64,000 nucleotides of DNA, taken from Giardia intestinalis (Eukaryota). The notes under the pieces are model-generated. The model was not told where the DNA came from. It worked only from the letters and a program-made list of their open reading frames with translations, and made no database searches. Position numbers and translations under genes: made by a program. Of this stretch, positions 2,014-50,452 are shown piece after piece (the first letter of the stretch is position 1; each line of letters opens with the position of its first letter). Where the stretch lies: assembly GCA_000002435.2 (NCBI GenBank), contig CM018792.1, one strand, 5' to 3'.

Positions 2014-2400
2014 TTAAGCTGTAGGGAATGCAAAGCAGATCCGGCGTCGTGGATGAAGAGCTTCTAGTTTCTTACGATGGAACGCTAGAATCTGTGCATA
2101 GAGCTCGTTGCTTGAAGACCCGGTGCCTTCTAGAAATTCAAGCAGCCGAGCAATTCCAAGAGAGCTGCATGCCCTGTATGCGTTAGGGACATATAGTAGG
2201 GGCTTATCTGGGTGTATCTTGAGACAATGTGCATGCAACGCACTTACTGACTTGAATCGCTGACCACGACGTGGACAGCCGGGAGTACTACACCGAAAAT
2301 GCCGAGCTCGCTGATGAAGCTCCAGCCCCTCTTTTGTCTTGAAAAGCCTTCCACAGTATAAGCAAAGAGCAGTGACTATGAGCACCTTGGTGCGGCCCAT
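2014..2400 (-). CDS. small C2H2-type zinc-finger protein
   Basis: The track ORF 2014..2772 begins at a GTG. The first ATG is at 2400..2398 and is preceded by an AT-rich initiator (ttttaatttttctaacattttt). C2H2-like units: CLYCGRLFKTKEGLELHQRARH and FRCSTPGCPRRGQRFKSVSALHAHCLKIH. Confidence 0.45.
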   Translation of the reverse strand: MGRTKVLIVTALCLYCGRLFKTKEGLELHQRARHFRCSTPGCPRRGQRFKSVSALHAHCLKIHPDKPLLYVPNAYRACSSLGIARLLEFLEGTGSSSNELYAQILAFHRKKLEALHPRRRICFAFPTA

Positions 2401-2484
2401 CAAAAATGTTAGAAAAATTAAAAACCGATAACCTTCTTTTTCCACACTGTCCCGGGCCTCCGTATCTACTAACGAGTTTTGCTC

Positions 2485-3480
2485 ATGCACTACACGTTTC
2501 TTGAAACCGTGAATAGACAGATGGTCTTTTATATCTACATTATGCTCGATGGGAAGCTTGTTCGGTCTACCGAGACCAAAGCTGTGCTTCTTCCCAAGCA
2601 GCTTTCCTCCCTCTCCTTGGAGATGGCATATCTCAAAGCTGATGAGGATACCATAATATTCAAATTTACACAGTTTCGAGGCATCATAACAGAAACTGTT
2701 CTCTACCTGGTCCAGGCCGGGCTCACTGATGACTCTCTTAAGGAACTGGAGGCATGCTTCCAAGTTTCTCACAGAGACCTAGTCAATGAGCCGTTCGAAG
2801 TCCAAGTGCTTGATACTATTATAAGTACTGCCACGGCTGCCTTGCGGACTAGGCTCAACGATATTAATTCAGATTTCGTTCAGATTGATTTGGCAAACAG
2901 AACAAAGGACGGAGTTAAGGATCTTCTCTTTCAGTTTCCTGATCGCCTATTGGACCTCAGCACCCAGTGTCAATGCATTTCACTCGCAATTTCAGATCTT
3001 CTAGACGACGAGGATGAGATTATTAGTCTTTGTTTCAAGAACAGGCATTTCCAACGAGACAGACTTTACTTTTGCAAGGTTCAGAAGGAGACCTTCAACA
3101 ATGGAAATGATTATCTGCCCTACCCTATTGACACTCTGGTTAACATGCTAGAGATATACCTCTTTCTTACTAAGGCAATGATCTCCACGGTAGATGTGAT
3201 GCGGTCAAACATCCTCAACACCTTCTCCCTCAGCGAATTGGATTTGGATAAGCGTCGGAATAAGATCCTTCGTTTTGAACTACACATAACATTTGTTTCG
3301 CTAGCTATCGAGATTGCATGCATGTTTTCCTCTCTTCTGGGCATGAATGTGTACATACCAAACAGCGAGAGTGTCCCTGTTTTCTTTTACACAAGTGGTG
3401 GTATTGTGGCTTTCAGTGTCTGTATTATTTTGGTTTGCCTACTTGTGGAACGCATCATCAATCGTAGGCAAGTTAACTGA
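2485..3480 (+). CDS. CorA/Mrs2-like Mg2+ transporter (GMN motif, two C-terminal TM helices)
   Basis: Track start 2479 is TTG; the first ATG is at 2485. C-terminus reads IEIACMFSSLLGMNVYIP followed by a second hydrophobic helix FFYTSGGIVAFSVCIILVCLLV, the CorA-family GMN signature arrangement. Confidence 0.5.
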   Translation: MHYTFLETVNRQMVFYIYIMLDGKLVRSTETKAVLLPKQLSSLSLEMAYLKADEDTIIFKFTQFRGIITETVLYLVQAGLTDDSLKELEACFQVSHRDLVNEPFEVQVLDTIISTATAALRTRLNDINSDFVQIDLANRTKDGVKDLLFQFPDRLLDLSTQCQCISLAISDLLDDEDEIISLCFKNRHFQRDRLYFCKVQKETFNNGNDYLPYPIDTLVNMLEIYLFLTKAMISTVDVMRSNILNTFSLSELDLDKRRNKILRFELHITFVSLAIEIACMFSSLLGMNVYIPNSESVPVFFYTSGGIVAFSVCIILVCLLVERIINRRQVN

Positions 3481-3538
3481 CATTAGAGTAAACGCTTGTT
3501 CCGTTGACTCGAAAAGAAAAGTATAGCAACCTGTGTGT

Positions 3539-6085
3539 ATGTCAACTTGTGTGCCATCTATCACTGAATCAGATGATGGCAGTAGAAGGGGTACGGTGGA
3601 TTCGCATTTGGAAGAGTGCAGTCCCACGTTCCTATCTACTACAGAATCTTTCTCCCCCAGAACACCACATTCTCATGCAGTAGTACAACATAGTACTAGC
3701 CCCAGAGATACGAGGGGACCAGAATGTCGCTCTGAACCGTGGTGTACCGTGGATTTCTTCCCATGCCTTCAAGAAACGGAACGCAAAAGTGCACTAGCCC
3801 CATCTCTGCAGGCGTCATTGGCATGTCTTCCCAAAGTAACTTGCTTGTCAGATTCCCAGAAGGATGTGCTAATACGTCACGACGAGCAGATAAGTGCTGC
3901 CACTACAGACTTTCAATACATGGCCCCGACCATGAAATCAACCCATACAAACAAGAGATTGATGAAGAATTTAACCGCAGTGCAGCAAAGAAAACGTAAC
4001 GACAGTACAAAAAGTGTTCTAAACACGTCAGGTGGATTAGGAGAAATGGAGCTTCCTAAAGCAGAGTTTACTAGCACCACACTACGTGCAATCATACCGA
4101 ATACATCAAAATTGGAGCGAGAATACCTTTTCCCCAGAGCCACGAGTTGCATCAGTTATAGTGACGAGCGAATACGCATGCGACTTGCCAATAAAGCCAA
4201 CGATGAACGAAGTACAAAGCCTATCATGTATGCAGACTATGATGACGTGGGCATGCGCTCCTCATCTGCTCTTGCTGTGCTAAATCCCTTCAAACTAGCT
4301 CCAGAAAGTCTCCTGCATCCATATGATGAACTAGCGCTTCAGCCCCTGAAGAGGGCTGTGCGAAAGAGTAGTAGTATTAAAAAGCACTTGTTTCGATCCT
4401 ATCTCACAGCAGCTGCAGCTAATTTGCGAAATGCTGTATCAGAGCAGGGGTTTTATGCCAAAGGAAAGCAAGTTTTCTGTCATGCAAACTCGCCTGATCA
4501 ATCAGTAGGGGGACAACAGACTTATAGTTACTCCAATAATATACAAAGCGACCACTATATAGCCCAGGATGATGACGAGAGCCTACGGAAAAAGAATGAG
4601 GAAATGCTCTACAGATTAAAATACAGTCATTTTATTTTGAAAATTATCAATACAGAAGAAGATTGCGCCGATGAAATCATGGAAGATTTGAATGACCTGC
4701 TTCACTGCACGTCGGCTACCAAATCAGTCAAATCTCAAGATTCATGTCTAGAAGGTCATAACTCTGGTGTCACCATTAAGCGTATAACAAATGATGGAAT
4801 TAAGTATACAGTAAGATACGATGCTGATCTCACAGTGCCAATTGTTATTAAGATAATCGCAAGCCACAGTATTCTTGAACTTCTCTATGCAAGCTACAAG
4901 GACAAAAGGGATTTAGTACGCATAATTCGAGATTACGAAGAAGACCAGGTTGCGTTTCGGATGGGCTTATTACAGACGACTGCAACTTCAAATACTACTG
5001 CTGTGACACCGTCTTCTGTTCCTTGTAAGCATTTGTCCCCACAGTCACAAAAGCTCCTTACCACTGAACCTAGTACAAGCTCTATGCCGAGTGACTATAG
5101 CAGAGCATTCTTCTCACTAATTAATCCGTCCAAGTCTGACAATCCAAAGGGTGAAGCTGTTTCAGAGCCAGAGGCGCCCAAGCGACAATCCTACAACATA
5201 AATATGTGTATTCAGCGGTTGAACAATGAACTGAAGAAGCTAGAAGAGAAACGGCAGCAAAGGAAAAGTAAAGAGGAGGCTGCAGAGCCACAGAGTTATT
5301 CTATGAGTGACTCTGGACTATCTTCCTTTTCGCTGACCCTGGACTTCTCTCCCGATAGAGCTGGCCCAGGCGATGATTGGCGCTCTCCATCCATGACTAC
5401 TCTGATTTCGAAAAGACCTATCCGCACATCTATCGTAGAGGATAAGCCTATAGACAGCACACATGCCATGACATTATCATTATTGGATACGTTCACGACA
5501 AGAAAAGATATGTGCAAAATGATACTTTTAAAGCAGAGCCAGAGAGCCCCAGATGACCTGTTAGCCAGAGCATCTCAACTTCGCGACAAGCTCACACAGA
5601 AACGGGACATTGAGGCTTTTAATGCGGAGCAGAAGAAGAAGACATCTGTGGACGTGCGTAGAAGCAACGAAGAGGTCATATCATACATGCTCTCAAGTCA
5701 TCACAACAGTCGCAGGATCCTTGCAAAGGAGGATCTAAAACCTGCGATAGACAAGGTAGGGCGTCAGGCTGTTGCACGGGATTACTTTCATGGTGACGCA
5801 CCCAGTGGTGCACAAACAGTTACTTTGGATACAGATGCGATAAGAAAGACGCTGGATGCATATGTGCACAAGAATAAAGGCCCGACCAAATGGTGCACGT
5901 TCAATCCAGTAAAGGGTGTAACAAGGGAGCATATATCACGCCACGATGCCACTAGAGCATCACTAGCTCAGCCAAAAGCTGCACCTTTTCCTCGAAGCTT
6001 GAATTTCAAGACGGATGCAGTAACACAACCCGCTGGACCGTGGAAAGCCATGAAAGTGACCAAGCCAGATTACTATTCTAAGTAG
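3539..6085 (+). CDS. hypothetical protein, Ser/Thr-rich N-terminus with coiled-coil segments
   Basis: Long ORF. Track start 3533 is GTG; the first ATG is at 3539. No recognisable catalytic motif. The 3' end overlaps the convergent ankyrin gene by 8 bp. Confidence 0.4.
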   Translation: MSTCVPSITESDDGSRRGTVDSHLEECSPTFLSTTESFSPRTPHSHAVVQHSTSPRDTRGPECRSEPWCTVDFFPCLQETERKSALAPSLQASLACLPKVTCLSDSQKDVLIRHDEQISAATTDFQYMAPTMKSTHTNKRLMKNLTAVQQRKRNDSTKSVLNTSGGLGEMELPKAEFTSTTLRAIIPNTSKLEREYLFPRATSCISYSDERIRMRLANKANDERSTKPIMYADYDDVGMRSSSALAVLNPFKLAPESLLHPYDELALQPLKRAVRKSSSIKKHLFRSYLTAAAANLRNAVSEQGFYAKGKQVFCHANSPDQSVGGQQTYSYSNNIQSDHYIAQDDDESLRKKNEEMLYRLKYSHFILKIINTEEDCADEIMEDLNDLLHCTSATKSVKSQDSCLEGHNSGVTIKRITNDGIKYTVRYDADLTVPIVIKIIASHSILELLYASYKDKRDLVRIIRDYEEDQVAFRMGLLQTTATSNTTAVTPSSVPCKHLSPQSQKLLTTEPSTSSMPSDYSRAFFSLINPSKSDNPKGEAVSEPEAPKRQSYNINMCIQRLNNELKKLEEKRQQRKSKEEAAEPQSYSMSDSGLSSFSLTLDFSPDRAGPGDDWRSPSMTTLISKRPIRTSIVEDKPIDSTHAMTLSLLDTFTTRKDMCKMILLKQSQRAPDDLLARASQLRDKLTQKRDIEAFNAEQKKKTSVDVRRSNEEVISYMLSSHHNSRRILAKEDLKPAIDKVGRQAVARDYFHGDAPSGAQTVTLDTDAIRKTLDAYVHKNKGPTKWCTFNPVKGVTREHISRHDATRASLAQPKAAPFPRSLNFKTDAVTQPAGPWKAMKVTKPDYYSK

Positions 6086-6692
6086 GCGCTCGAGGAAGAG
6101 TGGAAGGCGTTGTCATGGCCTGTAGAGCCTCTGTCCTTCCACCCTTTATAGCTAGATCCCGGGCAGTATAGCCCATTCTGTTCCGCAGCGGCATTTCGCT
6201 AAGTAGCAAGGGAATGCATTCGAGACTGTTGTGAAACACCGCAAGCATGAGCGCTGTCCATCCAGAGCTTGTTTGCTTTCCTAGCTCACATTTTAGTAAA
6301 CAGGCAACCTCAGTATAGTTGTAGCAGGCCGCATACATGAGAGCAGTGTAACCATCTTTATCCTGCATGTTTTTCTCCTGTGGGAGTAAAAGAGATACCA
6401 GAGGCAGTTGGTGTCTCTTAGCAGCCATCATCAGCGCTGTTTCACCGTTGGTCATGAAGCATCCTGCTTCGTGGAAGTAATTGTTGGCCCTGCTCAGATC
6501 ATTTGCTAGTACTGCCTTCATTAGTTCCGTGGGGCTGGACACTGGACCAAGTGACGTAAGGGAGTCAACAGACCTAGGAACTGAAGAGTGCTTCAAAGAC
6601 GGCTCCGCAGATAGTATATTTAAGGGTTCGGACGAGGCATTCACCTCCGACATAAGATTCTTTATGTACTTACAAAGATCATCAAACGTCAT
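6078..6692 (-). CDS. ankyrin-repeat protein (Giardia Protein 21.1-like)
   Basis: ATG at 6692. Three to four ankyrin repeats: GETALMMAAKRHQLPLVSLLL, DGYTALMYAACYNYTEVACLL, SGWTALMLAVFHNSLECIPLLL. Confidence 0.7.
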   Translation of the reverse strand: MTFDDLCKYIKNLMSEVNASSEPLNILSAEPSLKHSSVPRSVDSLTSLGPVSSPTELMKAVLANDLSRANNYFHEAGCFMTNGETALMMAAKRHQLPLVSLLLPQEKNMQDKDGYTALMYAACYNYTEVACLLKCELGKQTSSGWTALMLAVFHNSLECIPLLLSEMPLRNRMGYTARDLAIKGGRTEALQAMTTPSTLPRAPT

Positions 6693-6729
6693 GTAGGTTT
6701 ACTGAATGGGTACTAGGGCTCCTGCACTT

Positions 6730-7698
6730 CTAGTGCGGAGAAAGTTGAAGAAAGAGCTCAGCCAGCAGACGACATAGCTGCAAGGGACTTGAAACGGTTG
6801 TCTTGCTCTTTGCATGTAAACTGGCGAGAATTCGAAGCATACTAGCCCGCACCACGTCATTAATTTCTGTTTCGCTGTTAAGGGCATAGCGAAACATCGC
6901 GTTGTAGATATCGTCGTAATTGTAACCTTCGTTGAGCTGGTTATCTATAAGCATCCATCCGTCGTCAAACTTGCCGGATGTCAGGAGCTTCATAACCTGA
7001 TCAATAACCTTAACATCTATAGTGCTGAGAGCCTTCTGAACACCGGCCACTGTAATTACCTTGTTGTTAGCGTCTGCAACCAGCTGCAGGCTGTTGAGGC
7101 ATGAGCGAACATCGTTCCCAGAGATAGAAATAAGCTCCTTGAGTGCCTCGGTGTCGCTCTTAACCCCTTCCTTTTCGCAGATCTCCTGTAGATATTTGAT
7201 AAGTTCTGCTTGCGTAGCAGGCATGATGCGGAGAACACAACACCGCGATTGGACAGGCTCGATAACCTTCGAGATGTTGTTGCATGCGAGACAGAAGCGC
7301 GTGGAGCCAGTCTCGTCATCCATAATGCGGCGAAGGACTTGCTGGGCGGCCTCTGTCATTGCATCGCATTCGTCGAGGAAAACGAGCTTCTGGATACCCG
7401 CGGGAAGAGTTACTTGCTTTTGGGCGAAGGTCTTGACCTTGGCCCGGATATCGCTGACATTACGCTCGTCCGACGCGTTAAGCTCGAGGAAGGCCACACT
7501 GCGATGTGCACCAAGCATCTGGTTGGCCAGACAAAGAGCGATCGTCGTCTTCCCGAGCCCAGGCCCGCCGGCGAAAAGGATGTTCGGGAGGTTCCCCTGT
7601 GCGGCGAAGTAGCGAAGGCGCGCGAGGATCTCCGGGTTCCCGATGAGCCCGTCGAGGGTGCGCGGGCGGTACCGCTCGATGAATGGGAGTGCCTTCAT
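6730..7698 (-). CDS. replication factor C small subunit (clamp-loader AAA+ ATPase)
   Basis: ATG at 7698. Motifs: ERYRPRTL, Walker A GGPGLGKTT, DEAD-like LDECDAM, SRC motif QSRCCVLR. The first ~60 codons are about 95% GC3 and the 3' third drops to ~45% (see findings). Confidence 0.9.
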   Translation of the reverse strand: MKALPFIERYRPRTLDGLIGNPEILARLRYFAAQGNLPNILFAGGPGLGKTTIALCLANQMLGAHRSVAFLELNASDERNVSDIRAKVKTFAQKQVTLPAGIQKLVFLDECDAMTEAAQQVLRRIMDDETGSTRFCLACNNISKVIEPVQSRCCVLRIMPATQAELIKYLQEICEKEGVKSDTEALKELISISGNDVRSCLNSLQLVADANNKVITVAGVQKALSTIDVKVIDQVMKLLTSGKFDDGWMLIDNQLNEGYNYDDIYNAMFRYALNSETEINDVVRASMLRILASLHAKSKTTVSSPLQLCRLLAELFLQLSPH

Positions 7699-7761
7699 CG
7701 GCCACTCTTTTCAAACAATAAACTGCCTACTCCGGCCTCTGGTGAGGTCCCGCGCGGGCGC

Positions 7762-7844
7762 GCCAGTTTGGCCGAGTGGTTAAGGCGGGGGACTTAAGAT
7801 CCTCTGATCGCAAGATCGCGTGGGTTCGAACCCCACAGCTGGCA
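7762..7844 (+). tRNA. tRNA-Leu (anticodon TAA), type II with long variable arm
   Basis: GCCAGTTTGGCCGAGTGGTTAAGGCGGGGGACTTAAGATCC...GTGGGTTCGAACCCCACAGCTGGCA. Near-identical in architecture to eukaryotic tRNA-Leu(UAA). Followed by a TTTT Pol III terminator. Confidence 0.85.
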
Positions 7845-7848
7845 TTTT
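7845..7848 (+). terminator. Pol III T-run terminator of tRNA-Leu
   Basis: TTTT immediately after the discriminator base. Confidence 0.5.
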
Positions 7849-8508
7849 ATGCTCCACCGTGCGGCGCTCTGCCGCCCTGATCACACCCTCTTCTGGACCG
7901 TCTGCGCGCCCGTCGGTGCAGGACTCGTTTTCCTCTCTCTAGCTGCGCGCAGCATAATCTTGCAGATTCCGTACGCCAGGGTCAGAGCACTCTCTCTGGA
8001 CTCGAGGTCTACGGCTCTGCTGCGCATACATCTGCGCCACGGCGCTACTGTGCTGCTGTGGTGTGATTCAGCAGAGCTTTTGGCGAAAGAGGTTACCGAA
8101 GCTAGCAAAGTAGGAGGCGATGCAAGTCAAACGGAAGACGGCGTCATGTTCTCGTGCCATGTTTCTACGGGGTCTTACGTGCTTCATTCAGCAGTTGTGA
8201 CAGTAGGGCATCTCCACGTGATAGTGCATACATCAGATATTTTGCTGAAATGCCCTGTGGCAGAAATCATCGAAGTCCGCGAAGCAGGGCATCCATGCGT
8301 TATTGACCTGTGCTGCATCTCTAAAAGACTTATCCTTGAGTTTGATAAGAGCGAGGATGCGAACAAATGTCGTACCCTTTTACTTGGCTACATCTTGCTG
8401 AGGACCCTTAAAATAGATGTGAAAGATCAGATAAAACAATTTTACGTGGCTTCCATAGCTCAACCATCAATGCTGTGGGCGGGAAGCCTTTTTCACAATC
8501 TTCAATAA
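7849..8508 (+). CDS. hypothetical protein (start uncertain)
   Basis: 219-codon ORF whose ATG lies 5 nt after the tRNA-Leu 3' end, overlapping the Pol III terminator. The first third is GC-rich, so low stop density there is weak evidence for coding. No recognisable domain. Confidence 0.3.
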   Translation: MLHRAALCRPDHTLFWTVCAPVGAGLVFLSLAARSIILQIPYARVRALSLDSRSTALLRIHLRHGATVLLWCDSAELLAKEVTEASKVGGDASQTEDGVMFSCHVSTGSYVLHSAVVTVGHLHVIVHTSDILLKCPVAEIIEVREAGHPCVIDLCCISKRLILEFDKSEDANKCRTLLLGYILLRTLKIDVKDQIKQFYVASIAQPSMLWAGSLFHNLQ

Positions 8509-8625: not shown

Positions 8626-11600
8626 ATGGCGGACCCTCAGTACTCTCAGCAGCTTCTCAATATAGACGCCAAGCTGCAGAGCATTTACGACGAGTGCGTT
8701 TGTGAAGTGATTGGACGGCATTCAGTAGACGCTAATAATGCTTTTTCTCCTGCAATCCGGGATGACTTATATCTCTTGCATCAGAGGGTTCTCACCAAGC
8801 AAGCGACTGAAGATGACAATGCTCGGTACCGTCCGCTATATCTAGAAATTTCCACAGCCTACACTCATAAGCTAAGGCAGCTTAGCACTGTGGATCCCGC
8901 ACTGGCTCAGTATTTACAGTATCAACAGCTACAAGCGACTCAGCAAATGGCTCAGCGCTCGCAGCAGGTCCAGCAGGTTCATCAGCCTCCAGTTCAGCAG
9001 CAGACCCAACAACAAGTCCAGCAGCAAAGGAACGCGTCTGACAGGCTGTCCCAAACGTCATATATGCTGGAATTTGCATATCAGACCCAAGGGCAACATA
9101 CAAAGGACATTCTGCGCACTCTCAGAGCATATTATGACTCTTACGCGCAGCAATCGCATATGCCCCAGGTTGTTGAGAGTGTATTTGCGCAAATGAAGCT
9201 TATATTTTGCTATCTTTTTTGCATGATTAAGCTTTCTGGGGACTCTACAAAGGCTGCAGAGATAGAGCAAGCATATTCGCTGCTCTGCCAAGAAAAGAGT
9301 AGAGCGGGAGCTCCCCTTTTCGCATCGCCAGAACTGTATAAGGAGTTAGAAGAAGAGACACAGATGTTTTTGAATAGCAAACAAGCTCAGGCTCAGCAGT
9401 ATTCGTATTCTCAGGGCTCGTTTGCCTCAGATGCCGCACAGCCACTTTCTATCTTTCAGCCTGTCAAGGAGGAAGCGCTATCATATGCACACTTTGGATA
9501 TGTGCTTCTTCATCCTGCCACGCAGAAGCAGCTGTACGAAGTGCTCAAAATTCTCTGCGCACAACCGTCCGCATCTCAGCAACAATACCAATCTGTAAAA
9601 GCTGCCCTTGTTAAGTATCTCTACATATTTCCTCGGAAGACAAAGAATTGCTGGTTAAATCTCAATGTAGACTTGTATGCAAAGATCTGTCCTTCTTCTC
9701 AAACCTTCCCGTCTGCAGGGCTGTACCAGGTACTTGATTACTTGAAGGTACAGTGCTATAGTCTTTTTCAATGTATATATGAAATATCCAGATACATAGT
9801 AACGGCGATCCAGGTGAAGAGCTCAGGCCAAGACTTGTCACAAGCAGCAGCGATCATAAATAATTTTAGAATCAATATGTTCTACGATTTTAAGTATAAT
9901 CTTTACCGACCACCATATTATAACGAGCTCCCACAACCTGATCCTCATCTGAACGAGTATTATGCGGAGTTTGTCCAACCTACGGTAGAGTCTCTCCCTA
10001 ATATAGAATCGCAAATCAGCCTTATGACTCAGGGTCCTACAGGCGATCCCGGGTTGCCCTTGCATCAACCGCAAGCGCGAGCAGAAACCAAAGCGGAACC
10101 TCAAGGACTAGGTAAAGCAGAGCAACAGACCAGGCTACAAAGCGAATTGCAGAACGACAGCCACAGATCCTTCTTGAATAAATATAGGGAACTGTGCATA
10201 CAGGTGTTTCAGGTGTCCAACATCACAAAGCCCGCTCGCGATTCTTACTCGAAGGTAATAAAGGACTATAACGTAGCATACAACCACCTCCTCTCCTTTG
10301 GAAATACCAACTCAGCTGAAAAGCAGAATGCCGAATTTGCGGCTAGAGCTCTTTATAACAAGGCGCTAGCAATTCAGGAAGACATGCGGCAAAAGGAGCA
10401 GGCATATTACACGAGTCTGCAACAATTATCTGCATACGAACAGTCAATAAACGGGTCTGACGACCTTCGAGCTGAAATGGAGCAGATTAAACAGAGCGTC
10501 ATGGACATGTACATTAATAAGGCCGCGTATCAGAAGGCTCCTCCGCCGACTATGCAACAACGGCAGCGTGCATCTACAAGACAGCTGACCCGTTCGACCA
10601 CACCAAGCATAACCCCCTTACACTCACTCTCCTCGGAAGCAGTCAGCACAATGGAAGAGAGCAGCGAGTCTTCGGAGGCATCACCGGTCTTTGATGACAC
10701 TGAAGATACACAAAACCAGGCCGTCTCCGATGAACTCAGCGATGTTCCTGACCACGACACAGACGTTGAGGAAGAAAATTATATTGGATGCGTACTCGAT
10801 TGCAAACGGATACCCATGACCTCTGCGTGGCTTTACACACCTTCCCTCCTAATTAAGCCAGATCCAGATCCGTCAACGATCGGCAAATATGACTTTTTGC
10901 GCCCTAAGGGGATTCAGCGATTGGGACGCAGTGATGGAGGTATAGCAACTGTACGGATAGACTTTCTGTATGAAGATTTAGACAACGTCAACAATGTGAT
11001 TGAGATATCTCCAGAAGAGGAAAATATAAAGCGCTCTGTAGATTCATCTTCTCGTATGAGCAAAGGGGTTAGAGACCTAGAAAGATCTGTAATCAAAGAA
11101 TCGCCTCAGGGTGAAAAGCAAAGGACGGGCATTACCAAGGTTCCTTCCAAGGACTCGTTAGATGATAATATTGTAAGCGTACAAAATGCGTCACCCCTTA
11201 CCGCTGAAAAAGCTGATGTAGTAGACAACCATAGTATCATTGCTGATGCAGAATTACTTACTGTAAAGGACAGTGACCAGAACGGAAGCCTCCCTCAAGG
11301 CGAGTATCAAGACCCAGAGAGTAAGGAGAAGGATGATAATCCCGAAAAACTGGACGAGGCGAATGAACCTGACGGCCAAGAGGGCCATGAAGACCTTACT
11401 GAGTCTAGTGATACTGTTGTTACTCCTCGAACTGAAGAGCGGCGAGCAGCAGCAGAAAATGAGCATGTATACATTTTCCTTATCAAGTGGCAGAGGAAGG
11501 CACATTGCCATGCAACGTGGGAGCTAGAGGACTATCTTATGCACTTATCATCGTACGTGAAGGTCAAGAACTACAAGAAGAAATATGAAAAGATCCAGGG

Positions 11601-23078: not shown

Positions 23079-25559
23079 ATGCGCCAAGAGAACAAGGCTC
23101 ACCGCGCATCTAGTACAGCAAAGAGTAAGGGAAAGGTTCCTGCCAAAGTTCGAGGGGCTTCAGTGAAAAAGACCGACGGAAAAAGCATTCGCCGGAAACT
23201 GTCGAAAGAGGAGGCTAGGCTTCGCCAGCAATCTCAGAATAAGGCTAAAAACCTAACGAAAAGCATGCCGAAGTATATTGCGCTCCTAGCTCTCAGTGCT
23301 GGCATTGATGCTCGCATTGTCTGGGAACAGCTTTCCACAGCCACTAAGTGTGTCAAGGTCCGACTTCCAGATATAGCCACACAGTCTGCTGTCCATGTGT
23401 TTCAAGGTCAGGGCTATATCCCAATTTTTCCTGACATGCCTCACACCGAACTAGGCCTCATGGATTGCATGGACTCTTTAATGCATGCAGACTTTTTCGT
23501 TTTCATTGTTCATGCAGAAGGGGTGAGCGATATGGGCCGTTTAGTCATACAAGCGGCCCATGCACTCCATTTCAATCAACCTCAGGTTGTTCTAGGTCTC
23601 AGCACAAGTACAGCTGTATCTCACGCCCTTGACAAAGCATTTACAGCAACATTTGAAATATTGGGGTGTAATACCGAAACCTTCACAGATCTAGGGATGC
23701 GGCCTGTGAGTGGTAACGCTCCACCTTTATCTGGAATATCAAATCGACAGAAAAAATTCATCAGGGAGCTTTTCCATCCAGATGCACATGTGATTGCGCC
23801 GTATGACGTTTCACGACACGGTGATTCACTGATGCGATACCTTAGCAACACCGTCGTCTCTGTCGAGCAAACCCGACCTGGATGGATAAGCAAGCGCCCG
23901 GTTGTTCCAATAATTGGATATGAGTTCAAGGAGATAGACTCAGAGACACAGGCTGTCCGGTTCGATGTAGTAGGATGGCTCTCTGGTCAACTCCCACTTA
24001 CTGCAAACCAAAATGCTTATTTACAATCGGTCGGGGCATGCAAGATTCTCAATATCGATACAATAAACGTTCTAAATCCTGCATTCCTTTGTGACGATAA
24101 GTATGCTATCTACGTTCGATCATTTCAGCACTTACAAACAAGAAGCAAGGATGCTGAGGGTTGTGAGCAAAGGAGTGGAGTAGCAGCGAAGGAAACGGTT
24201 ATACAGACCATAATGGAGGCCATGCGTGCAGAAGAGGCGTCTGATAGCTGTGATACATTTGACGCGACTGTTCAAGCGCTTGCCAATCAAGAGGAAACCG
24301 ACACAGTCGATGAAGAGAAGATTCAGATGGGCAGTGACTATGATAGGAAGCTTCAATATCAAAGTGACGAGCCTTGGGAGTATCCTGACGAGTTGGACAT
24401 CCACCCTGCATTCGAACTCCGGACGCTTCTTAAGGGCTGGCGAGGTCTCAAGAGCATGAGGACTTCGCCCTGGAGGATTGCAAGTGAGGAGGTTCCTGAT
24501 GGCTTTGAGGGTCTACACCACATTCATCAACCGGTACAGTTTTACGACTATGTAAGAAAACAACAAATTATGGGTGGACTTACAGCACCTGGGAATTTTC
24601 TTCGCATAACATTGGAGTTTATTTCATCCAGTCATAGCCACCTTATTTCTGCAGGAATTTCAGATGAATTTGCACCAAATCTTGAGGATATATACAGTCA
24701 GTATAGAGAGTTTCTGAATACATTGATGGAAAATGTTACTAGAAACAAGACCGTTGGTCTATGCGGCCTTTACTCCTGCGAAAACAAGGACTCAATAGCT
24801 CATGCTACAATGAGTCTCTACGGTCTTCCTAGTACGTTTGGTGTTCCAGATGCTCCACCAATCAAACCGGGAGAAGAACAACCCCTCACACATGAGCATC
24901 CGTTTATCTTATATGTTGGATTTCGCAGGCTCTACACTGTTCCCCTCCCGAGCCAACCTCTTACACCGACGCGGAGCAAGTTGCAGCGCTATTACCATGG
25001 TCAGGAGTCGAGCATCACCCTTTCTTTCGTGTGCCCCATGTTCGTAGAATATCAAAACCTACCCCCAGTTCTTGCTTTTATCAATAAGAGTATCTCACCC
25101 GGATACTGTAGCATCAAGGAAGACTTTAAGTTTTGTGGCTCTGGCAAGCTCACAAGCCTTGACACCTCCTTCATTACGTTGCAGCGGATAGTCCTCGCTG
25201 GAACGCCCTTTCATATATCGAAGCATCGTGTTGTTGTAAGACACATGTTCTTTTATCCTGAGGATGTTAAGTACTTTGCTCCAGTAGATCTTTATACCGA
25301 AAGCAATGTTCGGGGCCGTATTACGCAATCCATTGGGATGAAGGGATACTTCAAAGCATTCTTTGATGGGAAGGTTGATCACAGCATGGCTATCAAACTG
25401 GCTGTCTACCGGCAGGCGTTCCCGACGCTTGTCAGCCTGCGCTTCGACGCGGGCGACATGCTCCTCTTCGAGCCTGTGGCGGAGTTCTTCGTGAGGAGGA
25501 TCGCGGCGACGCAGGAGGAGCTCGCTCGCCTCGCCGCGGCCCCAGGTGGGGACGAGTGA
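23079..25559 (+). CDS. TSR1: ribosome biogenesis protein Tsr1 (Bms1/Tsr1 family, no GTPase motifs)
   Basis: The N-terminal region DCMDSLMHADFFVFIVHAEGVSDMGRLVIQAAHALHFNQP aligns with the yeast Tsr1 AARP2CN region. The C-terminal DUF663 signature ITLQRIVLAGTPFHISKHRVVVRHMFFYPEDVKYF...GMKGYFKAFFDGKV matches Tsr1 [25 protein letters not shown]...GTHGYFKATFDGKL. Confidence 0.8.
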   Translation: MRQENKAHRASSTAKSKGKVPAKVRGASVKKTDGKSIRRKLSKEEARLRQQSQNKAKNLTKSMPKYIALLALSAGIDARIVWEQLSTATKCVKVRLPDIATQSAVHVFQGQGYIPIFPDMPHTELGLMDCMDSLMHADFFVFIVHAEGVSDMGRLVIQAAHALHFNQPQVVLGLSTSTAVSHALDKAFTATFEILGCNTETFTDLGMRPVSGNAPPLSGISNRQKKFIRELFHPDAHVIAPYDVSRHGDSLMRYLSNTVVSVEQTRPGWISKRPVVPIIGYEFKEIDSETQAVRFDVVGWLSGQLPLTANQNAYLQSVGACKILNIDTINVLNPAFLCDDKYAIYVRSFQHLQTRSKDAEGCEQRSGVAAKETVIQTIMEAMRAEEASDSCDTFDATVQALANQEETDTVDEEKIQMGSDYDRKLQYQSDEPWEYPDELDIHPAFELRTLLKGWRGLKSMRTSPWRIASEEVPDGFEGLHHIHQPVQFYDYVRKQQIMGGLTAPGNFLRITLEFISSSHSHLISAGISDEFAPNLEDIYSQYREFLNTLMENVTRNKTVGLCGLYSCENKDSIAHATMSLYGLPSTFGVPDAPPIKPGEEQPLTHEHPFILYVGFRRLYTVPLPSQPLTPTRSKLQRYYHGQESSITLSFVCPMFVEYQNLPPVLAFINKSISPGYCSIKEDFKFCGSGKLTSLDTSFITLQRIVLAGTPFHISKHRVVVRHMFFYPEDVKYFAPVDLYTESNVRGRITQSIGMKGYFKAFFDGKVDHSMAIKLAVYRQAFPTLVSLRFDAGDMLLFEPVAEFFVRRIAATQEELARLAAAPGGDE

Positions 25560-25569
25560 ACGAAAGATG

Positions 25570-25640
25570 TGCGCATGCCGGGGCTCGAACCCGGAACGAA
25601 AGCTTGGGAAACTCTCATGATACCCTTTCACCACATGCGC
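25570..25640 (-). tRNA. tRNA-Gly (anticodon CCC)
   Basis: Reverse strand reads GCGCATGTGGTGAAAGGGTATCATGAGAGTTTCCCAAGCTTTCGTTCCGGGTTCGAGCCCCGGCATGCGCA. Cloverleaf with loop TTCCCAA, closely resembling eukaryotic tRNA-Gly(CCC). The 3' end is 10 nt from the Tsr1 stop codon. Confidence 0.8.
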
Positions 25641-25718
25641 CTGTTCCGCAGCACTACTGAGGAACTCCAATAAGAATATTAGATTAGGTTGCCTGTGTTT
25701 ACTATGTGGATGGCACGT

Positions 25719-26300
25719 TCACACAGCAAGCCCGAGCTGCTCGAGCGCATTCGCGAACGCGCAGATAGGGAGCCCGAGAACGGTGGGGGCATCCCCCCGC
25801 ATGCAGGAAATCCACCGCGCGGCGTGACCCAGACAGGCGAAGCCGCCGGACTTGTCGTACGGCTCCGAGGTAGCAGCATAGGCAACACTGTCCTCTTTTG
25901 GAATGCGTCGGAAATCGACCTCAGTAGAAGCTGTCAAATCATGGCAAACACCAGGGCCTCTCAGTGCGACTGCAGTTACAACTGTACACGTTGATTCGGA
26001 AAAGTCTTCCAAAAATTGAACGCACTCGGCGGGGCTCTTGGGCTTCTCATAGATTCGCCCTTTACAGACAACTATTGTGTCGCAACCTACGACTAGTGCA
26101 CCAGGGCGGAGAGGAACAGCGCCTTCTGCCTTTATCGCAGCCTTCTTGCAAACGAAGGACTCAATACTGTTCGTAGCTGTAAAAACCACATCATTCTCAT
26201 CTGCCGGAGACGGTACAACCTCGAACGTGTATCCAGCGTCCTGGAGAAGCTGCGCTCGTCTGGGGCTTGTGGATGCAAGAACCAAATGGAGCTTCTTCAT
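25719..26300 (-). CDS. Maf-family nucleoside triphosphate pyrophosphatase
   Basis: The track ORF begins at a TTG (26336); the first ATG is at 26300. Motifs: LVLASTSPRRAQLL, VVGCDTIVVCKGRIYEKP, YDKSGGFA. Confidence 0.8.
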   Translation of the reverse strand: MKKLHLVLASTSPRRAQLLQDAGYTFEVVPSPADENDVVFTATNSIESFVCKKAAIKAEGAVPLRPGALVVGCDTIVVCKGRIYEKPKSPAECVQFLEDFSESTCTVVTAVALRGPGVCHDLTASTEVDFRRIPKEDSVAYAATSEPYDKSGGFACLGHAARWISCMRGDAPTVLGLPICAFANALEQLGLAV

Positions 26301-46970: not shown

Positions 46971-47090
46971 CTTTTAAAAATAAAAATCTCTGCTCCTTTT
47001 CGAGTGGTGTTTTCCTACAGGAATGCCTCGAGGCCTCATGGCACAAAACAAATAGTTCAAAGGTTATATATAGAATTGTGCGGGGTTTGC

Positions 47091-47162
47091 GCCGGAATAG
47101 CTCAGCGGTAGAGCGCTGCACTTGTAATGCAGTGGTCGCGGGTTCAATTCCCGCTTTCGGCT
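47091..47162 (+). tRNA. tRNA-Thr (anticodon TGT)
   Basis: GCCGGAATAGCTCAGCGGTAGAGCGCTGCACTTGTAATGCAGTGGTCGCGGGTTCAATTCCCGCTTTCGGCT. Matches the architecture of eukaryotic tRNA-Thr(UGU). A T-run follows. Confidence 0.85.
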
Positions 47163-47283
47163 TTTCAGTGGGCCTTACAGGTTACAGGTGCTTCTCCGCA
47201 GAATCCCCATCACAGAGGCCGTTATCCCCCCGGAGGTGTGGGCCAAGATCCGCGCCCTGAGCTTAGCAAGCCTCGACAAGGCC

Positions 47284-47991
47284 ATGGGGCTCATTGAGGG
47301 GGCGTCGTGGAAGGACCCCAAGGTGGACGAGGGGATGTCGATCACCACCGCCGTGGTCGAGGGCAACAAGAACCACGCGCTCAAGGCGACGATGGAGATA
47401 CCATACCCCGTCCACTGCTGCTTCGGGGCCCTTGTGGCGATGAACATCAACGTTGACGAGACCAACAGCCAGGCCCTCCGCAAGTCGACGCTTTTCCGCC
47501 GCGAGACGCTGGAGTCTCCGGCCGACGCCGAGGCGAAGAAAGCCTATGCAGGCTATGCCCAGCAGAAGACGGCCCAGGACTTCCCCGAGGTCAGGGAGAT
47601 CTCTAGCGTCTCCCAGTTTGTCACCACGTCTCCCTCTGCGATTGTCGCCCACCGCGAGTTTCTCACCGTCCTCAACTTCAGGGAGCTCCCGAAGGCGGAG
47701 GGGAGGCGCCGAATCCTCTACTCGTTCATGAGCCCAGAGCTCCCGGAGCTTCTCGCCCTTTACCCAGAGGCGACCAAGCAGGAGGGCTGGGTCCGCGGAG
47801 TCGTCCACATCAGCGCCTTCCTTTTTGAGGAGACGGCCCCGGGCAGCGGAAAGACAGCCGCCACGTTTGTCTGCCATAGCGATCCCATGGGAAAGGTCCC
47901 GGCGCTGCTTGCCAACTCAGTGATTGTCAACCAGGCGAAGTCCCTGCTCAGCATCGTTAAGGTCATCGAGACCGGGCAGGTCCAGAAGTGA
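47284..47991 (+). CDS. START/Bet v1-like lipid-binding domain protein
   Basis: The track ORF starts at GTG 47188, 26 nt after the tRNA; the first ATG is at 47284. START-like core: VSQFVTTSPSAIVAHREFLTVLNFRELP...RRRILYSFMSPELPELLALYPE...WVRGVVHISAFLFEE...TFVCHSDPMGKVPALLANSVIVNQAKSLLSIV. About 63% GC with very high GC3. No AT-rich initiator. Confidence 0.6.
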   Translation: MGLIEGASWKDPKVDEGMSITTAVVEGNKNHALKATMEIPYPVHCCFGALVAMNINVDETNSQALRKSTLFRRETLESPADAEAKKAYAGYAQQKTAQDFPEVREISSVSQFVTTSPSAIVAHREFLTVLNFRELPKAEGRRRILYSFMSPELPELLALYPEATKQEGWVRGVVHISAFLFEETAPGSGKTAATFVCHSDPMGKVPALLANSVIVNQAKSLLSIVKVIETGQVQK

Positions 47992-48424
47992 ATGCATGAT
48001 GGTGCGTCTCACTAACGCTGGCCCGTTCTTTGGGTGTGCTGCAAGTCTGTCCTTCTTTTCCGGACGTGCATGCACTCCCACGAGGAACCTACAATTCTGG
48101 ATGCAGTGAAGGGGCCGATTACACGTCAGCCCTAGCAGCCCATGAGAGCCGCCTCCTGCAGACCTCTGGCCCAGGTTATACTGAGGACGCTATCGTAGAC
48201 ACAGATCTTTAGAAATCCTCATCCAACTTGAGTGCCTGAAGGAGTCTTAGTCTCGAGCATTATGCAATCTAACCACCATCGTTCTCGGCTCCAGCTGATC
48301 TTTCCCAATACAAGAGACATCGGGGACCCGTCGCCCAATTCGCACTCACAGTCGCTGTCTCCTGCCAATGGGCGCACCTACTCGAGCTTTCTCCACAATC
48401 GCCACCGCAGTAGATACATTTACA

Positions 48425-50452
48425 TCAAAGAGCAGAGTCGGCGGACCCCTCGGGCAGCAGACTGTCTGCACTCCCGCGATCGTACTTCATTGCCCGGGTC
48501 CTTCTACGCACCCCCTTGCGGACCAGGACCTTCACGATGAACGGTATTGCCGCGCAGACGCCTATGAGGAGCAGGACCAGAATCACGATCGCTGCTGTTA
48601 CTCCGGGCTTGAGGCCAGACTTGTTCAAAAGGCCACTGCAGTGCAGGCCATAGGCTGTGCTTAGACTGACAGTTTCTCCCGAGGCACATCGCGTGCATCC
48701 AACTCGGCCATTATTTGAGAACTGTTTGCACATAGAGCATCCAGAGGGGCACTCAAGACACTTACTGTTGTCATAACTGAAGTAGAAACCATCGGCACAA
48801 ACTCCGAACGCACAAATATCTGCAAAGTAACAGCCTCTAATGCATTCCTTTTGGCACGGAATACAGGTAGGATTAGCGCCTTCTGAAAATCCGTAGCCCT
48901 TGATACAAGTATTACATTTATCCTGTCCTTTAACATATTCCATGCAATTTTGGACAGAGCCTTTGGTACAAGTTGTGCTGTCTGTTGACAAGTAGTATCC
49001 ATTATTGCATGTAGAACACTCTTCACGTTTAAACAGACATCTGCTGCAATTTTCAACCTGGCACTTATCGATTTGTTTTTTAGTTGCGTCATAAAAGTAT
49101 CCTTCAACGGCACGCATACACTGGGATACGTCGGGGCCGCTACAGGACTCACACTTATCGGCACAGGAAGCACAAATTCCACTAGATACATAGTATCCAG
49201 CAACGCACTTAATGCAGGTGGGATCTGTCTCATCGCCTGCAAGTATACAATTAGGAATTACGTCGCCAACAGGAATGCAAATACCATCCTTTAACGCCAT
49301 ATCATTACGGCATGTTTTACAGTTACTACCTGGACCATCGCAGGTATAACAAACGGAGTCACAGGCCACGCATATATTGTCAGACAAGTAGAAGCCGTCC
49401 TGACACTTTGTGCAGTTGTATCGTTCGCTGCACGTATCACATCCCAGTATACTCAGTTCACAGCGTATGCAGGCCCCATTTTCTTGAAATTCATCTTCAG
49501 CACATGGGTCTGGTTCAGATGTAGCACATAGTACGCCGTATATCTTTGGACCAGTCCTAGCTGCTGTTGTTACTTTACATTTTTCACATACAGCTTCTCC
49601 GTGTCCAAGATCGTAGTAACATGAAAAACATCCATCTGGACATGGTAAGCAGTACTGCGAATAGGGGTTAAACATAGACCCTGGCATACAGGCGCCACTA
49701 GTACAGCGGTATGGCGCGGGAGTATTACCATTCATGCAGAACAAGCAATTTGTGGCACAAGGAAGACAAGCAGCTCCGCTGAGGACATAGCCTTCTTTAC
49801 AGCCTGTACACGTGTCCTTAGGCTCACATTCATTGCAATTTTGGACAGTGCACTTAATGCAACTCCCATTTTTGTTACTACTTTTATCTAAACCGTATCC
49901 ATTCACGCATTCATCACATGTATCCTTAGATGTGTTACATATTTTGCAGTTAGTATCTACGCAGCGAGTAATCTCTCCAGTGGTTTTATTTAAATAGTAC
50001 CCAGAAGAGGGCTCCTCACACTCAGTTTCATTCTTGCAGCTGTAACAGTTATCTTTGCATTTAGTGCATGTAAAGGTCTTTGCATTAAAGAAGTATCCAG
50101 CGTGGCACTGTATGCACTTGTTGGTGTCATGTGCGCACCTGATGCACCCCTCATAGACCTCACCGGGCTCATCGCAGACCCCAATTGCATTCCTGCAGTG
50201 ATTCCCGCTGCACTCCAAGCAGCTGTTCGGATTATTGCACGTCTTGCATGTGTGGTCGCACGGCTTGCAATAGCCATAGTCGAGATAGTACCCCGCTTTG
50301 CACTCAGTGCAGGCTCCTGGCCCCCGACACGAGAGGCACCAGAGCATGCTGTCATCGCACTTAACGCACATGTTGCCGAGAGCATAGTGGTCTCGGGGGC
50401 AGTTGATAGCTAATGTTCCAATAAGAAGAGCGATTAGAGTAAGAAGTTGCAT
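48425..50452 (-). CDS. high-cysteine membrane protein (HCMP, EGF/furin-like CxxC repeats), type I
   Basis: ATG at 50452 after an AT-rich initiator. Signal peptide MQLLTLIALLIGTLA. About 12% Cys with repeated CxxC...GYY/GYF units. C-terminal TM helix AAIVILVLLLIGVCAAIPFIV and basic tail. No CRGKA terminus, so HCMP rather than canonical VSP. Confidence 0.8.
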   Translation of the reverse strand: MQLLTLIALLIGTLAINCPRDHYALGNMCVKCDDSMLWCLSCRGPGACTECKAGYYLDYGYCKPCDHTCKTCNNPNSCLECSGNHCRNAIGVCDEPGEVYEGCIRCAHDTNKCIQCHAGYFFNAKTFTCTKCKDNCYSCKNETECEEPSSGYYLNKTTGEITRCVDTNCKICNTSKDTCDECVNGYGLDKSSNKNGSCIKCTVQNCNECEPKDTCTGCKEGYVLSGAACLPCATNCLFCMNGNTPAPYRCTSGACMPGSMFNPYSQYCLPCPDGCFSCYYDLGHGEAVCEKCKVTTAARTGPKIYGVLCATSEPDPCAEDEFQENGACIRCELSILGCDTCSERYNCTKCQDGFYLSDNICVACDSVCYTCDGPGSNCKTCRNDMALKDGICIPVGDVIPNCILAGDETDPTCIKCVAGYYVSSGICASCADKCESCSGPDVSQCMRAVEGYFYDATKKQIDKCQVENCSRCLFKREECSTCNNGYYLSTDSTTCTKGSVQNCMEYVKGQDKCNTCIKGYGFSEGANPTCIPCQKECIRGCYFADICAFGVCADGFYFSYDNSKCLECPSGCSMCKQFSNNGRVGCTRCASGETVSLSTAYGLHCSGLLNKSGLKPGVTAAIVILVLLLIGVCAAIPFIVKVLVRKGVRRRTRAMKYDRGSADSLLPEGSADSAL

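Follow-up and report, generated by a model that had tools for sequence, protein, structure and literature searches.

The window analyzed here is a stretch of 64,000 nucleotides from Giardia intestinalis WB (assemblage A), with an overall GC content of 0.457. It carries three tRNA genes, and the positions assigned to them in an initial annotation were reproduced by ARAGORN and Rfam (Table 1). Rfam searches of the whole window at the gathering threshold, and of each GC peak and the largest GC island at E <= 1-5, returned these three tRNAs as the only RNA genes. The replication factor C gene (RFC) next to tRNA-Leu encodes a protein identical to XP_001705363.1 of G. intestinalis WB.

Table 1. Genes and GC-rich features of the window.
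Feature	Position	Strand	Evidence and context
Replication factor C subunit 4 (RFC)	6730..7698	-	Pfam AAA/Rep_fac_C
GC spike 1	7203..8203		GC up to 0.64 per 300 bp; roughly centered on tRNA-Leu
tRNA-Leu (TAA)	7762..7844	+	ARAGORN; Rfam, 58 bits; between divergent RFC and ORF 7849-8508
219-aa ORF	7849..8508	+	No Pfam match
Tsr1/Bms1-type ribosome biogenesis gene	23079..25559	+	Pfam RIBIOP_C
GC spike 2	25250..26072		GC up to 0.62 per 300 bp
tRNA-Gly (CCC)	25569..25640	-	ARAGORN, Rfam; between Tsr1 and Maf, whose 3' ends converge
Maf-like gene	25719..26300	-	Pfam Maf
Largest GC island	32442..35266		GC up to 0.67; no tRNA or recognized RNA gene
tRNA-Thr (TGT)	47091..47162	+	ARAGORN, Rfam; left boundary of duplicated START block
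Segmental duplicate (START, spacer, HCMP 3' end), GC spike 3	47195..48790		BLAST
START-domain gene copy	47203..47991	+	Pfam START; GC3 85% throughout
High-cysteine membrane protein (HCMP) gene, VSP family	48425..50452	-	Pfam VSP
GC spike 5, 5' end of the HCMP gene	50090..50432		Corresponds to the second tract of paralogue conversion mapped in assemblage E

GC landscape of the window

In 500-bp windows, GC content reaches 0.62 at 7501-8000, 0.58 at 25501-26000, and 0.58-0.62 at 47001-48000. When a GC region is defined by 300-bp windows reaching a GC of 0.56, only five regions attain this level: GC spikes 1, 2, and 5 and the largest island, as delimited in Table 1, and 47014-48767. Two of the five hold tRNA-Leu and tRNA-Gly near their centers, and a third starts 32 bp past tRNA-Thr. 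The initial annotation had placed all three tRNA genes in the middle of GC peaks; this describes the Leu and Gly genes well but not tRNA-Thr, which lies at the left edge of its peak with a left flank at background. In permutations excluding the tRNA itself, the GC content of the flanks was matched by three random positions at P ~5e-4 to 1e-3. Among 16,506 windows of sixty codons, a GC3 of at least 0.75 was found only in the START gene, the N-terminus of RFC, the C-terminus of Tsr1, and HCMP 48425-50452. No description of GC peaks at Giardia tRNA genes was found in the literature searched.

GC spikes at tRNA-Leu and tRNA-Gly

Spike 1 covers roughly 500-700 bp of RFC and roughly 200 bp of ORF 7849-8508, and the spacer at 7699-7761 has a GC content of 0.62 versus 0.31-0.39 in typical spacers. 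The GC3 of RFC, taken in blocks from N- to C-terminus, falls from 90% to ~48% (rho = -0.23, p = 3e-5). The proposed gradient within this gene is present, but it is weaker than first described, with 85% rather than ~95% over the first 60 codons and 51% rather than ~45% over the last 100. ORF 7849-8508 shows GC3 of 73/67% over its first 60 codons and ~47% thereafter; in the gradient analysis it falls from 70% to 43%. The RFC gradient is also seen in assemblage E and is limited to the first 30 codons in assemblage B, and a like pattern in the ORF is found in both. Assemblages B and E, as well as G. muris, retain tRNA-Leu beside RFC.

In spike 2, raised third-position and non-coding GC is limited to ~200 bp on either side of tRNA-Gly. 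The ends of Tsr1 and Maf nearest this tRNA are GC3-rich, as had been claimed, though less strongly so, at 85% over the last 60 codons of Tsr1 (47% overall) and 73% over the last 60 codons of Maf, which adjoin tRNA-Gly. tRNA-Gly is kept in assemblages E and B, and the spike is weaker in the latter; two assemblage B samples of this locus are identical over 13.9 kb. At both loci only the 60-90 codons closest to the tRNA are biased, in agreement with the earlier view of a local effect as opposed to one acting on whole genes. Spike 1 lies at divergent 5' ends and spike 2 at convergent 3' ends, so the spikes do not represent a gene-end effect. A general 5'-end or divergent-promoter effect was also considered and rejected, as other gene starts average ~47% GC3 and other divergent pairs lack a spike.

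Base composition and substitution pattern

Within 300 bp of tRNA-Leu and tRNA-Gly, GC3 is 0.69 in assemblage A and 0.71 in assemblage E versus a background of 0.41-0.45. The enrichment near these genes includes third-position and non-coding sites taken together (65-91% versus 42-45%) and also first and second codon positions (0.56 versus 0.44), and it decays smoothly with distance, with a decay length of ~400 +/- 100 bp in an exponential fit. At 4-fold sites, C (0.39) and G (0.35) are both raised about twofold over background (0.22 and 0.17). This profile is unlike that of the ribosomal protein L22 gene, in which only C is raised (0.55) and G stands at 0.19. Both spikes recur in assemblages A, E, and B, even though A and B have an identity of only ~0.6 at third positions.

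Changes at polarized third positions within 300 bp of the two tRNAs show a reduced S->W rate (0.24 versus 0.37 per site, p = 1.6e-4) and an increased W->S rate (0.43 versus 0.31, p = 0.015). The resulting GC3* of 0.64 versus 0.45 comes from a small set of 76 polarized changes and is just modestly above artefact, because parsimony alone gives a GC* of 0.56-0.59 under a null model; in simulation, polarizing by parsimony against a distant outgroup overcounts W->S changes. Between 301 and 600 bp, GC3* stands at the background level of 0.43. The S->W deficit, in contrast, exceeds the parsimony-bias null (p = 0.004). In simulations this deficit, at 0.65x, matches a maintained GC-ward process (0.64-0.72x) and departs from a decaying relic (0.91x, p = 0.004), suggesting that the spikes are being maintained. 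Divergence is 0.16 versus 0.13 in the innermost 150 bp and falls below background at 151-500 bp. A polarized analysis of all sites found only the innermost 150 bp to be distinct; the third-position analysis with the parsimony-bias simulation was adopted because the all-sites version is diluted by constrained sites.

tRNA-Thr and the START-HCMP duplicate

GC to the left of tRNA-Thr is at the background level, with 44/50/44% per 100 bp and an upstream spacer of 0.39. The GC-rich sequence to its right belongs to a segmental duplicate with 98.6% identity to a PNO1-START-HCMP locus in another part of the same genome; the BLAST match in A reaches the contig end, so the right limit in Table 1 is a minimum. 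The equivalent tract in assemblage E spans ~2 kb at 96-100% identity. The junction lies 32-52 bp after tRNA-Thr, a gene kept in E and B. PNO1-START is the ancestral context, as found in a distant Giardia-like species, and the assemblage B copy beside tRNA-Thr retains a PNO1 N-terminal fragment. The ancestral copy adjoins PNO1 and no tRNA, and it is equally GC-rich, at 83-89% GC3. The START/HCMP zone at tRNA-Thr is GC-rich as originally described, but the peak is one-sided and belongs to a duplicate whose tRNA-less counterpart is just as rich. The START copy in the window has ATC at the canonical start codon, versus ATG in the five other copies.

The START copies of one genome share an identity of 0.984 in A, 0.996 in E, and 0.978 in B, as compared with 0.86-0.93 between assemblages. 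In assemblage E the paralogues are ~100% identical over 10006-11600 and 12900-13300, ~60% identical between these tracts, and unrelated outside them. Judged from these alignments, the START-HCMP copies undergo concerted evolution in A, E, and B. HCMP 48425-50452 has GC3-rich converted ends (73%; 67-80%) and a GC3-poor unconverted middle (13-53%), the part in which paralogue identity in E drops to ~60%. Across the START-HCMP block, paralogue identity is correlated with GC content (rho = 0.46, p = 6e-4), and at the 4-fold sites of HCMP, G goes from 0.10 in unconverted parts to 0.36 in converted ones, and C likewise from 0.25 to 0.36. A counter-case is the converted 5' tract of HCMP in assemblage E, which has only 0.38-0.52 GC. 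No mention of this two-locus block or of its junction after a tRNA gene was found in the literature searched.

Largest GC island

The largest island spans the tail of HCMP 31530-33065 and ~2 kb without an intact ORF, in which a NEK-kinase remnant is found at 33127-33492 (minus strand). At the equivalent site, assemblage E has an intact 547-aa NEK kinase that is likewise 57-61% GC. The island gave no Rfam hit, no tandem repeats, and no Pfam domains in its ORFs. A degenerate tRNA or B-box within it was ruled out, as there was no excess over shuffled sequence. This island was not mentioned in the initial annotation.

Relatives of G. intestinalis

In G. muris, tRNA-Leu, along with a tRNA-Gly, adjoins RFC, yet RFC has no gradient and there is no significant spike. 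Flank GC at G. muris tRNAs ranks at 0.18-0.28, and the tRNA-Leu flank, at 0.28, is unremarkable. Many G. muris genes have raised GC3 in their first 60-150 codons irrespective of tRNAs. The distant Giardia-like species has an RFC gradient from N- to C-terminus (GC3 80, 87 ... 52) with no adjacent tRNA; a gradient of this sort in an orthologue far from any tRNA had been named beforehand as evidence against a tRNA anchor, and it is in part what this species displays. A Giardia-like relative also contains a 3-kb intragenic island with GC3 up to 98% and no tRNA nearby. A "tRNA-Cys" called by ARAGORN in the GC island of the distant species is a false positive, as it lacks Rfam support and lies inside a 1771-aa ORF.

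Discussion

Our analysis supports a local conversion-type process behind the GC spikes of this window. We consider the chances to be about even that the spikes in G. intestinalis were left by recurrent gene conversion biased towards GC (gBGC), and we infer from sequence comparison that conversion is the cause of the GC enrichment; GC-rich DNA could also be more prone to conversion, which would reverse the causation. The suppression of S->W changes together with the strand-symmetric rise of G and C fits gBGC, and argues against both translational selection and the known transcription-associated mutagenesis of tRNA genes. In the proposed mechanism, heteroduplex repair would prefer G/C to A/T, and where conversion tracts recur, fixation would become more frequent for W->S changes and less frequent for S->W changes. 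Such a bias would affect silent, replacement, and spacer sites alike, and would fade over a tract length of ~200-500 bp.

Giardia is tetraploid and binucleate. Two sources of conversion would operate in the window. The first, demonstrated by the paralogue alignments, is ectopic conversion between the two START-HCMP copies, one of them beside PNO1; the other copy was inserted directly after tRNA-Thr before the split of assemblages A, B, and E. The second source may be conversion between homologous chromosomes begun at or near tRNA-Leu and tRNA-Gly, two independent loci at which tRNA genes would act as starters. The most plausible trigger would be a replication fork that stalls or breaks where the Pol III transcription complex sits and is then repaired from the homologue.

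In yeast, birds, dogs, and plants, gBGC at recombination hotspots is known to generate GC spikes with widths of 1-2 kb, and grasses show 5'-3' GC3 gradients (PMC5460877); the spikes described here share several features with these systems. As in those systems, the enrichment is narrow, roughly symmetric, and on the scale of a conversion tract; it extends over silent and non-coding sites irrespective of gene limits and codon position, raises G and C on both strands alike, and may favor W->S over S->W changes. Unlike the anchors proposed here, which are tRNA genes, known hotspots are meiotic and are located at promoters, CpG islands, or PRDM9 motifs. The START-HCMP block resembles the concerted evolution by ectopic conversion of rDNA and multigene families: paralogues within an assemblage are closer than orthologues between assemblages, and mosaic tracts of identity have sharp boundaries, unrelated flanks, and GC-rich converted parts. 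In assemblage A, genes within inferred gene-conversion events have been reported to be GC-enriched, with a median of 0.541 versus 0.488 (PMC12669663); that analysis was conducted at the whole-gene level and centered on VSPs, and ours concerns one two-locus block.

A path from Pol III genes to local homologous repair is known from yeasts, where tRNA genes are sites of fork pausing and are fragile or recombinogenic (reviewed in PMC5368702; pause sites in PMC3616911). The START-HCMP insertion directly beside tRNA-Thr fits a break-prone site. In contrast to the scheme proposed here, a map of yeast chromosome IV ascribes the enrichment of tRNAs among conversion tracts to linked Ty elements, and no report of GC spikes at yeast tRNA genes was found in the literature searched. 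The anchoring of GC peaks at Pol III loci, suggested initially as a general rule, is contradicted by the background composition of the tRNA-Thr 5' flank, the equally GC-rich START-HCMP copy beside PNO1, the tRNA-less island at 32.4-35.3 kb, the G. muris flanks, and the RFC gradient of the distant species. That tRNA genes are major initiation sites of inter-homologue gene conversion in G. intestinalis strikes us as doubtful, though worth entertaining.

The link with tRNA genes may instead be a coincidence, in which many short intragenic GC3 patches have several causes and the association is an accident of small sample size or of a reader's attention. The island and RFC gradient lacking a nearby tRNA in the Giardia-like relatives, the tRNA-independent rise in early-codon GC3 in G. 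muris, and the three of five GC regions in the window that are unexplained by a tRNA all favor such an account. Outside multi-copy gene blocks, however, the GC regions of the window are the two tRNA sites alone. The low permutation probability (P ~1e-3), the recurrence of both spikes beside these tRNAs in E and B against a background of high turnover at silent sites, and the lack of a general 5'-end effect in the window likewise count against coincidence, which we judge to be unlikely.

Selection at the DNA level could also maintain GC-rich flanks if these serve the tRNA or its neighbors, such as by positioning nucleosomes, forming a chromatin boundary, or shielding closely packed Pol II genes from Pol III activity. 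An increase in W->S and a decrease in S->W changes are equally expected under selection, the spikes are kept in three assemblages, and the genome is packed very tightly, with just 4-80 bp of spacer next to the tRNAs. Against this, the converted START/HCMP block and the tRNA-less pseudogene island bear the same compositional signature, the 5' flank of tRNA-Thr is not GC-rich, G. muris tRNA flanks are unremarkable, and the smooth decay is accompanied by neither motif nor periodicity. We therefore regard selection on the DNA itself as improbable.

A further possibility is that Pol III transcription, R-loops, or repair synthesis impose a GC-ward mutational bias directly, with no heteroduplex between homologues. 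The peaks do lie near two Pol III genes, and divergence is slightly raised in the innermost 150 bp. Transcription-associated mutagenesis likewise produces a local evolutionary anomaly on tRNA genes and their flanks, but it entails higher divergence and C->T/G->A changes, an AT-ward bias, in the immediate flanks (PMC6130373), whereas the Giardia pattern is GC-ward over hundreds of bases, with S->W changes lowered rather than raised and divergence below background at 151-500 bp. The spikes span 200-700 bp as compared with a Pol III transcript of ~80 nt, and no effect is seen at the tRNA-Thr 5' flank or at G. muris tRNAs; such a mutational bias is accordingly quite improbable. Codon-level selection in highly expressed genes or segments finds some backing in the high GC3 of ribosomal protein L22 (0.79) and PNO1 (0.66) and in the C-rich 4-fold profile of START (C 0.52, G 0.30), by which expression may contribute to START, but for spikes 1 and 2 it is largely refuted and barely credible, as the within-gene gradients track distance to the tRNA at the N-termini of two genes and the C-termini of two others, 4-fold sites gain G as strongly as C, and a spacer and the first and second codon positions are enriched as well.

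How four genome copies stay near-identical, and whether recombination occurs, is a long-standing question in Giardia. If the GC3 spikes mark recurrent tracts of conversion, composition alone would reveal where homogenization starts. If, in addition, tRNA genes are major initiation sites, narrow spikes would record where conversion hotspots have lain in the past in a species in which, to our knowledge, meiosis has never been observed. The weaker spikes of assemblage B would then indicate a lower conversion rate in that lineage. Local GC pressure of this kind skews analyses of codon usage and selection in the affected genes and yields long spurious ORFs. The concerted evolution of START-HCMP offers a concrete within-genome case of active conversion in A, B, and E. 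If the tRNA anchor is genuine, tRNA genes would also be sites prone to breakage and insertion, the START-HCMP block after tRNA-Thr being one case, and Pol III genes would be tied to homologous repair outside yeasts.

GC-rich regions and gradients within genes

The window, part of an assemblage A Giardia chromosome, has a GC content of 0.457, and its genes lie close together, the spacers ranging from a few bases to a few hundred. Scanned in 300-bp windows, GC has a mean of 0.457 and an sd of 0.055, and just five regions attain the cut-off of 0.56.

GC regions of at least 0.56 in 300-bp windows
Region (nt)	Feature
7203-8203	holds tRNA-Leu
25250-26072	holds tRNA-Gly
32442-35266	largest island
47014-48767	begins at tRNA-Thr
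50090-50432	

ARAGORN and Rfam alike call the three tRNA genes: tRNA-Leu (7762-7844, +), tRNA-Gly (25569-25640, -), and tRNA-Thr (47091-47162, +). The initial annotation had placed all three in the middle of GC-rich zones, which is roughly right for tRNA-Leu and tRNA-Gly; tRNA-Thr is off-centre, with its left flank at background GC and an upstream spacer of 0.39. With the tRNA sequence itself left out, the chance of finding flanks this GC-rich at three random positions is ~5e-4 to 1e-3.

The within-gene gradients in third-position GC (GC3) are also real. In the gene for replication factor C subunit 4 (RFC; 6730-7698, -), whose product is identical to G. intestinalis WB XP_001705363.1, GC3 falls from 85% in the first 60 codons to 51% in the last 100, so that the original 95% and 45% were somewhat overstated. 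The ORF at 7849-8508 falls from 70% to 43%, and near tRNA-Gly the last 60 codons of Tsr1 and Maf reach 85% and 73%. Among 16,506 sixty-codon windows, GC3 of at least 0.75 is confined to the START-domain gene, the RFC N-terminus, the Tsr1 C-terminus, and the high-cysteine membrane protein gene (HCMP) at 48425-50452, the window having two cysteine-rich genes that match the Giardia VSP family.

Long ORFs (7061-7612, +; 7210-7797, +; 25095-25670, -; 47263-47877, -), read in a different frame or from the other strand, overlap the GC-rich gene ends and have no Pfam support where tested; the preferred reading is that they are not genes but by-products of the scarcity of stop codons in GC-rich sequence. 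The 32.4-35.3 kb island has no tRNA, Rfam match, or B-box excess. At 33066-35913 lie 2.8 kb with no intact ORF and GC up to 0.67, where assemblage E strain P15 has an intact 547-aa NEK kinase gene. A kinase match occurs only at 33127-33492 (-; 52% to residues 178-337 of the P15 gene), and the other ~2 kb has no alignment with P15; a multigene-family member may have decayed or been replaced here.

The tRNA-Leu and tRNA-Gly spikes

Both tRNA genes keep their position in assemblages E and B, and tRNA-Leu adjoins RFC in G. muris too. By GC, their flanks fall within the highest 0.3-5% at each locus in A, E, and B, with a smaller amplitude in B. Transcription-associated mutagenesis at tRNA loci, for which C->T/G->A changes in the immediate flanks are reported (PMC6130373), matches these spikes in neither direction nor scale. 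Position within the gene can also be rejected as the cause, since the tRNA-Leu spike lies between divergent 5' ends and the tRNA-Gly spike between convergent 3' ends, while other divergent pairs in the window have no spike. Unlike translational selection, the enrichment is strand-symmetric: 4-fold sites within ~270 bp of these tRNAs have C at 0.39 and G at 0.35 (background 0.22 and 0.17), whereas ribosomal protein L22 has only C raised (0.55; G 0.19). First and second positions near both tRNAs are also raised (0.56 versus 0.44), as is one spacer (0.62).

Maf (25719-26300, -), directly beside tRNA-Gly, may have been laterally acquired; its best matches outside G. intestinalis are ~39% identical, the named ones being bacterial MAG proteins, and no G. 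muris orthologue is among the matches listed. The 13,940-bp Maf/tRNA-Gly loci from two assemblage B sequencing runs (L006 and L007) are identical at every base.

The tRNA-Thr peak

Assemblages A and E have two START genes per genome by homologue search, and a second locus, PNO1-START-HCMP, is present without a tRNA in A (L008), E (L013), and B (L011). Positions 47195-48790 match the A locus at 98.6% identity, up to that contig's end, and the orthologous E locus at only 92%. The START copies are in concerted evolution, because in the identity matrix all six cluster by assemblage, not by locus (0.978-0.996 within a genome, 0.86-0.93 between assemblages). Of the two copies, the one beside the tRNA is derived, since a distant Giardia-like species has START adjoining PNO1-L22 and the B copy retains, between tRNA-Thr and START, a PNO1 N-terminal fragment (L012 of strain GS, 9629-9724; 32 residues, 97% identical) that the A and E copies lack. 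The duplicate was inserted 32-52 bp after tRNA-Thr before A, B, and E diverged, the fragment showing the direction of this ancient duplication.

In all three assemblages START has a GC3 of 83-89% at either locus; in the distant species, with its single locus, the value is only 60%. The E paralogues are ~100% identical in START, the spacer, and both the 3' and 5' ends of HCMP, and ~60% identical in the HCMP middle. In the window HCMP, the GC3-rich parts (73%, 67-80%) correspond to converted tracts and the GC3-poor middle (13-53%) to the unconverted part. Therefore ectopic conversion, not the tRNA, explains two of the five GC regions.

At 47203-47205 the START copy next to tRNA-Thr has ATC, where the A paralogue and both E and both B copies have ATG, and the WB annotation lists a shorter product of 235 aa, on the 2.76-Mb contig that also carries RFC. 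This copy may start at a different codon, or it may be decaying even though conversion continues.

Direction of substitution

We aligned A, E, and B over ~42 kb and, taking B as the outgroup, polarised the changes along the branches to A and E. For third positions no more than 300 bp from tRNA-Leu or tRNA-Gly, the A/T to G/C rate is 0.43 versus 0.31 (p = 0.015) and the reverse rate 0.24 versus 0.37 (p = 1.6e-4). Equilibrium GC3 there is 0.64 versus 0.45, and 0.69 in the converted START/HCMP block, both by parsimony, which with this outgroup inflates A/T to G/C changes; in simulation this bias alone gives a decaying relic 0.56-0.59. The 0.65x deficit of G/C to A/T changes fits a simulated maintained process (0.64-0.72x) and not a relic (0.91x; p = 0.004), and a single fixation-bias parameter of about B = 0.6-0.8 would be enough to explain the deficit. 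The equilibrium estimate is at background at 301-600 bp, and the active zone is therefore narrow.

Origin of the spikes

The initial annotation's hypothesis of anchoring at Pol III loci fits two of the five GC regions, which are two independent loci, and not the other three. Evidence from relatives limits the claim for tRNA genes. In G. muris, tRNA flanks have a GC rank of just 0.18-0.28, and RFC lacks a GC3 gradient. Many G. muris genes (L004) have GC3 of 70-83% in the first 60-150 codons and then 50-60%, with or without a tRNA nearby, which resembles a general 5'-3' gradient, absent from G. intestinalis. Upstream of its RFC, G. muris also carries an extra tRNA-Gly (TCC) at a distance of 29 bp from tRNA-Leu (L004, 9792-9975), where G. 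intestinalis has tRNA-Leu alone. The distant species has an RFC gradient (80, 87 ... 52) with no adjacent tRNA and an actin-family gene 4 bp upstream, as well as a 3-kb intragenic island with GC3 up to 98%. Its L014 (SRR31929897) holds a 1771-aa ORF (2121-7436, -) with GC3 of 85-98% in the C-terminal half and local GC of 66-71%; a 97-nt ARAGORN "tRNA-Cys" inside it is unsupported by Rfam.

We find the initial observation largely real and regard a local, GC-ward process of the conversion type as the best explanation, with about even confidence. GC-biased gene conversion would lie behind the spikes, given the common signature of the tRNA spikes and demonstrably converted paralogue tracts. In a recent population study, which makes no mention of tRNAs, Giardia genes lying within conversion events were enriched in GC (0.541 versus 0.488; PMC12669663). 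The tRNA genes may start the conversion, a proposal that draws on the known role of tRNA genes as fork-pause sites in yeast and on the block inserted directly beside tRNA-Thr. Among the papers searched, none had already described GC spikes centred on tRNA genes in Giardia.
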